A DNA stretch of 8,687 bases, taken from the IMG/VR virus record IMGVR_UViG_2896595138_000004, one strand, 5' to 3'. The notes beneath the pieces were generated by a model that did no database searches, was not told the origin of the DNA, and was given only the letters and a program-made list of their open reading frames with translations. The number at the start of each line of letters is the position of its first letter. Positions within the stretch are counted from its first letter, which is position 1. The position numbers were made by a program, and so were the translations under genes. This document shows positions 1 through 766 of the stretch, in pieces. The DNA is from a virus. Taxonomy: Duplodnaviria; Heunggongvirae; Uroviricota; Caudoviricetes.

Positions 1-303
1 TTATCGAGAACTGTTCAGGGAGTCTGACATCAAGAGCGCGGTAGCCTTTTTTAATATTTCATTCTCCATTTCAATGCGTTGTAGCTTTTTCCTCAGCTTA
101 CGTATTTCGATTTGTTCTGGTGTTATCGGAGAGGCTTTTGGTGTTTTGCCCTGACGCTCATCACGCAGTTGTTTGACCCATCTTGTCATTGTGGAAAGGC
201 CAACATCCATAGCTTTGGCGGCATCTGCCACCGTGTATTTCTGGTCAACAACCAGTTGAGCGGATTCGCGTTTAAACTCTGCGCTAAAATTTCTTTTTTT
301 CAT
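1..303 (-). CDS. insN: IS911 OrfA (helix-turn-helix transposase N-terminal/regulatory protein), 100 aa
   Basis: Minus-strand ORF; from ATG at 303-301 the product is [100 protein letters not shown], near-identical to IS911 OrfA as I recall it; stop codon is the complement of 1-3. The ORF-track start at 339 is an upstream alternative start I consider unlikely. Confidence 0.8.
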
Positions 304-375
304 TGGAGCACCTGTGTTGTTCTGAGGTGAGCATATCACCTCTGTTCAGGTGGCCAAATTCAGTGTGCCACTTCA
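1..375 (-). mobile_element. IS911-like IS3-family insertion sequence, left-end portion (element continues past window start)
   Basis: Reverse complement of 331-375 reads TGAAGTGGCACACTGAATTTGGCCACCTGAACAGAGGTGATATGC, which I recognise as the IS911 left terminal inverted repeat (IS3-family TG...CA terminus); it is followed by an orfA whose product matches IS911 OrfA. Outer boundary at 375 is set by the terminal TGA. Confidence 0.8.
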
Positions 376-600
376 ATTTAACGCCTTACGCAGTTGCAGA
401 ATTTCAGATTCCAGTTCAGCCACCGTGCGGGAACCAGGAGTACCGAGCCCTTTTCTGGCGGCGGTAACCCATTGTCCTAAAGTGCCTTCAGGAAGGGATA
501 ATCGGGAAGCGCCTTCACTGATCGAAAGTTGATTTTCAAGAACCGTTCTGACAGCTTCGGCTTTGAACTCTTTAGAGTAACGTTGGGTTTTTCTGCTCAT
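376..600 (-). pseudogene. IS600-like orfA, truncated after about 75 codons by the IS911 insertion
   Basis: Product MSRKTQRYSKEFKAEAVRTVLENQLSISEGASRLSLPEGTLGQWVTAARKGLGTPGSRTVAELESEILQLRKALN ends at a stop codon supplied by the terminal TGA of the IS911 inverted repeat (373-375), i.e. the reading frame is cut by the inserted element. Confidence 0.6.
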
Positions 601-664
601 TATTAGCTCCTTCTGATGCCATTCTATTTCAGGAAGGAGTGTCCGTTAAACTCAGGCTACCTCA
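376..664 (-). mobile_element. IS600-like IS3-family element, left-end fragment interrupted by the IS911 insertion
   Basis: Reverse complement of the 664 end reads TGAGGTAGCCTGAGTTTAACGGACACTCCTTCC... (TG terminus), then a strong SD (AAGGAG, 6-nt spacer) and an orfA start at 600; the orfA product resembles IS600 OrfA. Lambda-T/H-like sequence resumes at 665. The 664 boundary is inferred from the TG terminus and where phage sequence resumes. Confidence 0.6.
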
Positions 665-766
665 GAGAACGGGATACCGGAGCGAACGGACGAAGAACTG
701 ATGCATCTTGGGGAAGGTATTTCCGGAGGTGTGCGTTATGGACCAGATAGCCAACCTGGTCATTGA
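665..766 (+). pseudogene. 3' remnant of tail assembly chaperone gene (lambda T-like), 5' part removed or displaced by the IS insertion
   Basis: Frame 2 is open from the IS boundary (665) to TGA at 764-766, reading ENGIPERTDEELMHLGEGISGGVRYGPDSQPGH, and overlaps the H start as the T stop overlaps H in lambda. Assignment to T rests on position and gene order only; I cannot verify the residues from memory. Confidence 0.3.

Follow-up and report, generated by a model that had tools for sequence, protein, structure and literature searches.

In phage lambda, G and the frameshift product GT are chaperones required for tail assembly around the tape measure protein. Elements of the IS3 family, for their part, transpose by a copy-out/paste-in route via a circle, of which adjacent deletions are not a normal outcome, and IS911 is known to favour targets resembling its inverted repeats. 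IS1, IS2, IS4, IS600 and IS911 are the insertion sequences that have expanded in all Shigella species and that are also present in EIEC (Hawkey et al. 2020, PMC7373316).

The stretch of DNA analysed here (8,687 nucleotides of the Caudoviricetes record IMGVR_UViG_2896595138_000004 in IMG/VR; hereafter, the window) is 100% identical to part of CP026845.1 (locus L003 1914-10600, reversed). It begins in an IS911 copy, continues through a piece of IS600 and a short end of a T gene, and runs on into a lambda-like block of tail genes. This arrangement is probably a scar at the left edge of the tail-gene remnant of a lambda-like prophage in a Shigella chromosome, produced via recombination between two IS911 copies.

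The IS911 copy

Positions 1-375 of the window (minus strand) are the left 375 nt of IS911. They align without gaps, at 99.5% identity, to a copy (L002 4327-4701) labelled by RefSeq as 'IS3-like element IS911 family transposase', and the alignment stops exactly at the terminal ...CACTTCA of that copy. The left terminal inverted repeat occupies 340-375 on the minus strand, its tip TGAAGTGG... ending at 375, and the reverse complement of the terminal sequence within 1-375 reads TGAAGTGGCACACTGAATTTGGCCACC.... An identical tip borders a simple insertion with a GCA target duplication in EIEC FDAARGOS_944 (L014). The orfA of 100 codons plus stop (1-303, minus strand) was taken from the ORF list and carries an HTH_Tnp_1 domain (PF01527, E 5e-14); the left edge of the window coincides with its stop codon.

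In the source chromosome, IS911 is whole, measuring 1249 bp (L003 10226-11474) and differing from the intact annotated copy of FDAARGOS_944 by 3 mismatches in 1249 nt (99.76% identity). It has the IS3-family 5'-TG...CA-3' ends, with TGAAGTGGCACAC... at one end and ...GTTGACCACTTCA at the other. An inverted-repeat finder returned nothing for these ends, because the repeats are imperfect and fall below its seed length. The OrfA and OrfB frames are both open, OrfB running to ...NSVASFC and its stop codon. An A AAA AAG slippery motif (TTAAAAAAGG) was found near the end of orfA, with orfB in the -1 frame, and rve domains are on record. The names IS911 and IS600 as used here are taken from the RefSeq annotation of copies that are at least 99% identical, and identities of at least 99% across 289-375 nt are far above chance.

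The triplets beside the two ends of this IS911 are AAT and CGC, so the copy has no 3-bp target-site duplication. The missing duplication speaks against a simple insertion and leaves the identity of the element as IS911 untouched.

The IS600 stub

Directly right of the IS911 tip, positions 376-664 (minus strand) correspond to nt 1-289 of IS600, that is, to its left end only, at 99.3% identity to a 1264-bp copy. This reference IS600 (in L002) is flanked by a GCA duplication, and a second full copy, in the sister locus L023, is flanked by a GTC duplication. Both full copies set the tip of the element as TGAGG...CCTCA; the tip at 664 in the window is TGAGGTAGCC. IS600 is represented by nt 1-289 alone in the window and in all sister loci, its distal 975 nt being absent. 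Its orfA is truncated to 75 of 100 codons (373-600, minus strand; ORF list; PF01527, E 6e-21), and the TGA that closes it is the reverse complement of 373-375, which are the first three bases of IS911. A consensus scan placed a promoter-like site in the IS600 left end (621-649, minus strand), facing orfA and away from H, and the same kind of scan gave no plus-strand promoter-like match upstream of H in 1-737.

The IS600 target contains a TGAAG identical to the IS911 tip and 1 nt away from it (AAAT/GAAGC; window 371-380, IS600 nt 286-295). A longer match between this target and the IS911 inverted repeat was considered and rejected, since just 5 nt agree, and no second independent IS911 insertion was seen at the same IS600 site. 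Recurrent nesting of IS911 in IS600, as might be read from contigs sharing the 75-residue OrfA, was likewise rejected. Seven of these contigs (L006-L012) end at IS600 nt 291 with the normal IS600 sequence AAATGA and without an IS911 joint, and in another (L005), IS600 nt 290 is followed by a run of N. Because ORFs at contig ends share the same 75 residues, the count for the truncated OrfA (155 contigs) overstates the frequency of the IS911/IS600 joint. Many draft contigs were observed to stop 2 nt beyond the IS911 insertion point in otherwise normal IS600.

The T remnant, the tape measure gene and the remaining tail genes

Phage homology begins at 664/665. The first phage feature is what is left of the 3' end of T, a tail assembly gene (665-766, plus strand; 33 codons and the stop). 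This remnant is collinear with the T gene of L001 (3774-4103) and overlaps the first 29 nt of H. The translation of 665-763 is ENGIPERTDEELMHLGEGISGGVRYGPDSQPGH, followed by the stop at 764-766; it is identical to the C-terminus of the T protein P0124 and matches the L001 T protein (PF06223) at 32 of the 33 residues. The tape measure gene H (738-3777, its end being approximate; plus strand; PF06791) starts with ATG at 738, 73 nt past the IS600 tip and preceded by GGAGGT, in agreement with the annotated start in L001. Its TMP_2, TMP_4 and Tape_meas_lam_C domains are present. H is split in this record by 1-nt deletions in G runs and is intact in L004 (CP026877.1) and in L021-L023.

These results agree in every detail with what the first-pass annotation had read from the letters of the window. 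The IS911 left end that it placed at 375 falls exactly at the tip of the RefSeq-labelled copy. Its IS600-like end at 664 is the tip confirmed on the two full copies, and the stop that it attributed to IS911 for the IS600-like orfA (given as 376-600) is the TGA at 373-375, after 75 codons. The 73 bp that it counted from the IS600 end to H lead to the ATG at 738, and the roughly 33 codons of T that it expected directly upstream of H were found to be 33, at 665-763.

Right of 664, the window is 98-99% identical to a lambdoid prophage of EIEC RMDEC465, in which G, T and the tape measure gene are uninterrupted. G (PF06894) and the frameshift site are present in this EIEC relative and absent from all six assemblies that carry the scar, where IS600/IS911 stand in their place. 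With G and the 5' codons of T missing, no G or GT product can come from the locus. Look-ups with the G protein returned just uninterrupted G-T-H loci, plus one Logan contig (L018). This contig holds G and 76 codons of T and ends right before GAG, 3 nt short of the presumptive target triplet. Four draft contigs (L024 and L026-L028) begin at window position 668, 3 nt inside the phage side, and thereby skip GAG. Neither the end of the former nor the starts of the latter sit where a simple repeat fork would be expected. As a separate observation, the 25-nt overlap of G and T in L001 (3741-3765) is without lambda's GGGAAAG heptamer, the sole candidate there being CCGGAAAAG.

Among intact relatives of the tail block, the prophage of RMDEC465 (L013; 335644-373223 of NZ_CM177019.1) is the closest; it is head-less as well and is integrated beside yecE. 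It carries four tRNA genes, and an ipaH effector gene lies just past its tail fibre genes.

A comparison with L004 shows eight 1-nt deletions in the window, each within a G or C run (2021, 3519, 4054, 5556, 5804, 5900, 7469 and 8239). They split H, M, K/I and J, with H being hit at 2021 and 3519, both in G runs. In the sister assemblies, H is a single 1013-codon ORF and M is intact. Three of the fragments were looked up (one from H and two from J), and none of them was found outside this contig among about 15 billion proteins. The frameshifts of this record are probably long-read consensus errors, not real pseudogenisation, and read-level confirmation is needed before any of them is treated as a pseudogenising mutation. 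The window also differs from L004 by a 4-nt AATG at 5975-5978 and by substitutions, 14 of 21 of which crowd into about 200 nt of J (6796-6991). This cluster looks like a recombination or gene-conversion patch that may derive from another prophage copy.

The locus beyond the window

In window orientation, the order in the source chromosome is lpxL, mdtG' (65 codons), a recombinase fragment (141 of 509 codons), IS911, IS600 nt 1-289, T (33 codons), H-M-L-K-I-J', IS4 and opgH. The right end of IS911 adjoins an ORF of 141 codons with a Resolvase domain, and the right tip of IS911 supplies the stop of this ORF. It is collinear with the N-terminus of an intact large serine recombinase of 509 codons in EIEC FDAARGOS_944, where the recombinase is part of an element that has integrated into mdtG, beside lpxL. 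Beyond the recombinase ORF lie a 65-codon ORF, lpxL, trhO and yceI; the 65-codon ORF beside lpxL is taken to be the 5' remnant of mdtG. In FDAARGOS_944, the mdtG element has a tape measure gene of its own, which is split by IS911 with a GCA duplication (L014 12109-15409), and ISEc12 is also present.

At the other end, J is cut at codon 846 by IS4 (L003 about 480-1916), the tip of which supplies the TAA at 8685-8687. Directly after IS4 comes opgH; yceK, msyB and the 3' part of mdtG are missing here and present in FDAARGOS_944. The remnant is thus bounded on both sides by hybrid IS joints. G, V, U and Z are gone from the locus, as are the 76 codons at the 5' end of T and the genes for heads, lysis, regulation and integration. 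The distance between the tail block and the lpxL side in FDAARGOS_944 is about 1.1 Mb, and the two are oppositely oriented relative to each other.

Origin of the scar

What produced a single IS911 between two pieces of DNA that are unrelated to each other? Simple insertions of IS911 and IS600 elsewhere show 3-bp duplications (GCA, GCA and GTC). The AAT and CGC flanks of the present IS911, without a duplication, mark a rearrangement or deletion joint, and the locus is thus an IS911-mediated joint of this kind rather than a simple nested insertion.

We infer the following order of events. IS600 would first have inserted into T, at about codon 76/77, in a lambdoid prophage. IS911, oriented like this IS600, would then have entered it between nt 289 and 290. 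The nested IS911 may next have recombined with a second IS911 located in the serine-recombinase gene of the mdtG-integrated element, an event that would leave a single hybrid IS911 whose flanks are unrelated to each other and carry no target duplication. In the last step, the prophage would have lost G, the 5' part of T and all that lay upstream, together with the distal 975 nt of IS600. Homologous recombination between IS copies is a routine route in IS-rich Shigella.

The reciprocal joint of T 5' and IS600 would read ...CCGGAAGAG followed by the IS600 right end TGAGGTGTAC. Neither a T 5' fragment ending ...LLPE(E) nor a C-terminal fragment of the serine recombinase was found among the called proteins of a collection containing these genomes, a result that weakly favours net loss. 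Since the tail block and the lpxL side of FDAARGOS_944 are about 1.1 Mb apart and oppositely oriented, a plain local insertion cannot explain their adjacency in the present chromosome. An ancestor arranged like FDAARGOS_944 would need inversion-type events, not a local deletion.

An alternative that we consider unlikely dispenses with the nest. IS911 would have inserted first into the serine-recombinase gene, and its left end would then have attacked a nearby IS600, the DNA in between being deleted or inverted by intramolecular transposition or by an IS-dimer-type event, so that IS911 was never nested in a whole IS600. Such a single step yields exactly the joints observed, namely an IS911 tip left intact at IS600 nt 289, with the original flank retained on the right and without a duplication. 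The open OrfA and OrfB frames of this copy, and the TGAAG match 1 nt from the joint in IS600, are in its favour as well. However, it presupposes that the lambdoid remnant and the mdtG element already lay side by side, which they do not in the EIEC relative. The circle route of IS3-family elements does not normally yield adjacent deletions, and a match of 5 nt is weak.

Recombination between two IS911 copies, the preferred explanation, includes an earlier nested stage. The first-pass annotation had read the window itself as the product of this stage, an IS911 inside an IS600 with the rest of both elements and the other part of T/G farther left. That both joints within the window look exactly like those of a nest was correctly seen. 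The expected continuation was not found; IS911 is complete and is followed by the serine-recombinase fragment and mdtG'/lpxL. The source chromosome and five other assemblies all show this order, with no IS600 remainder, no T'/G and no duplication beyond IS911. The 3-bp duplication anticipated around IS911 is absent too. A simple nest with the IS911 remainder, the IS600 remainder, the T 5' half and G immediately left of the window is therefore hardly tenable, short of a misjoin common to all six assemblies, and the locus as a whole is a rearrangement scar in which IS911 bridges unrelated flanks.

Distribution and reality of the joints

Five other assemblies, among them that of Shigella boydii 5216-82, share all three joints in identical form. 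In L021, L022 and L023, each of the three junction 60-mers is matched exactly; L004 has the same junctions, the same gene layout and an identical IS911. Of these, L022 is GCA_000211975.2, given as Shigella boydii 5216-82 in PMC8342411. Together with the identity of the window to CP026845.1, this accords with the Shigella or E. coli host that had been proposed from the insertion sequences, as does the expansion of IS600, IS911 and IS4 in Shigella and EIEC. Among 5,426 complete E. coli genomes, neither the IS600/T joint nor the IS911/IS600 joint was found. An exact scan for the IS600/T joint in a contig collection with one genome per species also gave no match; Shigella probably has no separate entry in that collection. 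The scar is fixed in a Shigella lineage.

An additional full IS600 of 1264 bp, with a clean GTC duplication, lies between I and J in L022 and L023 (9965-11228). The window, at about 6066, has the corresponding empty site, and S. boydii 5216-82 is among the carriers.

Misassembly of the joints is very unlikely, given the identical junctions in sister assemblies and the short-read draft contigs that break at the joint. The proposal that the joints are repeat-induced misjoins in a long-read assembly with homopolymer errors, to which the eight G/C-run deletions relative to a sister strain and the fragments confined to this contig lend some colour, has next to no chance of being right, because the same 60-mers occur in three more independent assemblies (among them the 2011-era draft of S. 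boydii 5216-82), L004 shares the layout and the draft contigs have their breaks no more than 3 nt from the IS600/T joint.

Functional consequences

The block from H to J' is predicted from its gene content to be an inert remnant that cannot form tails, as the locus has neither a G/GT chaperone nor a major tail protein, and neither head genes nor a late promoter. The earlier proposal that the insertion alone would abolish tail production holds in principle. It is moot at this locus, where the upstream tail, head, lysis and regulatory genes are gone and J is cut by IS4. The further suggestion, that late-operon transcription into H may have been displaced, accords with the sequence, as 1-737 has no promoter-like site on the plus strand.

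H, M, L, K and I are full-length ORFs in five sister assemblies despite the loss of the upstream genes. With a divergence of only about 0.2% among the sisters, recency alone would lead one to expect intact ORFs. Two further readings, that the tape-measure/tail-tip block is kept for a benefit to the host and that the TGAAG in IS600 is a favoured landing site of IS911, have no positive evidence and are, taken together, highly improbable.

The locus represents an ordinary and already understood kind of IS-mediated prophage decay, the sole twist being the hybrid IS joint. It provides a worked example of a Shigella prophage dismantled by IS600, IS911 and IS4, and it shows that what looks like a 'nested IS' in a short window can in fact be a hybrid IS joint resulting from rearrangement. 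In annotation, the H-to-J' block is best described as a non-functional prophage remnant. The three joints can serve as lineage markers that are common to S. boydii 5216-82.

Comparison with known systems

How does this locus compare with the systems described so far? In its gene order, T-H-M-L-K-I-J, and in the overlap of T with the start of H, it is like the lambda-type G/GT-H loci of lambda, Tritos, Ayreon, cdtI and mEp460. The DNA of the tail block is 88% identical to phages of this kind and 98-99% identical to the EIEC prophage in which G and T are intact. Unlike those loci, it lacks G, and its T ORF is without the first 76 codons.

Its IS911 closely resembles the RefSeq copies of E. coli and EIEC in nucleotide identity (99.5-99.8%), termini (TGAAGTGG...CCACTTCA), the 100-codon OrfA, an OrfB following A AAA AAG and the length of 1249 bp. 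It differs from them in having no 3-bp duplication and in joining two unrelated flanks, namely IS600 and a serine-recombinase gene. The IS600 stub is similarly close to the 1264-bp RefSeq-labelled copy (99.3% identity over nt 1-289) and shares its left tip, promoter region and OrfA start. In contrast to a whole element, 23% of IS600 is left, OrfA being cut at codon 75 and OrfB and the right end being gone.

Overall, the locus most resembles the IS-driven decay described for Shigella (Hawkey et al. 2020, PMC7373316), with IS600, IS911 and IS4 bounding and interrupting a remnant whose joints are fixed in a lineage. Nothing of substance sets it apart from that process, of which it is one more instance.
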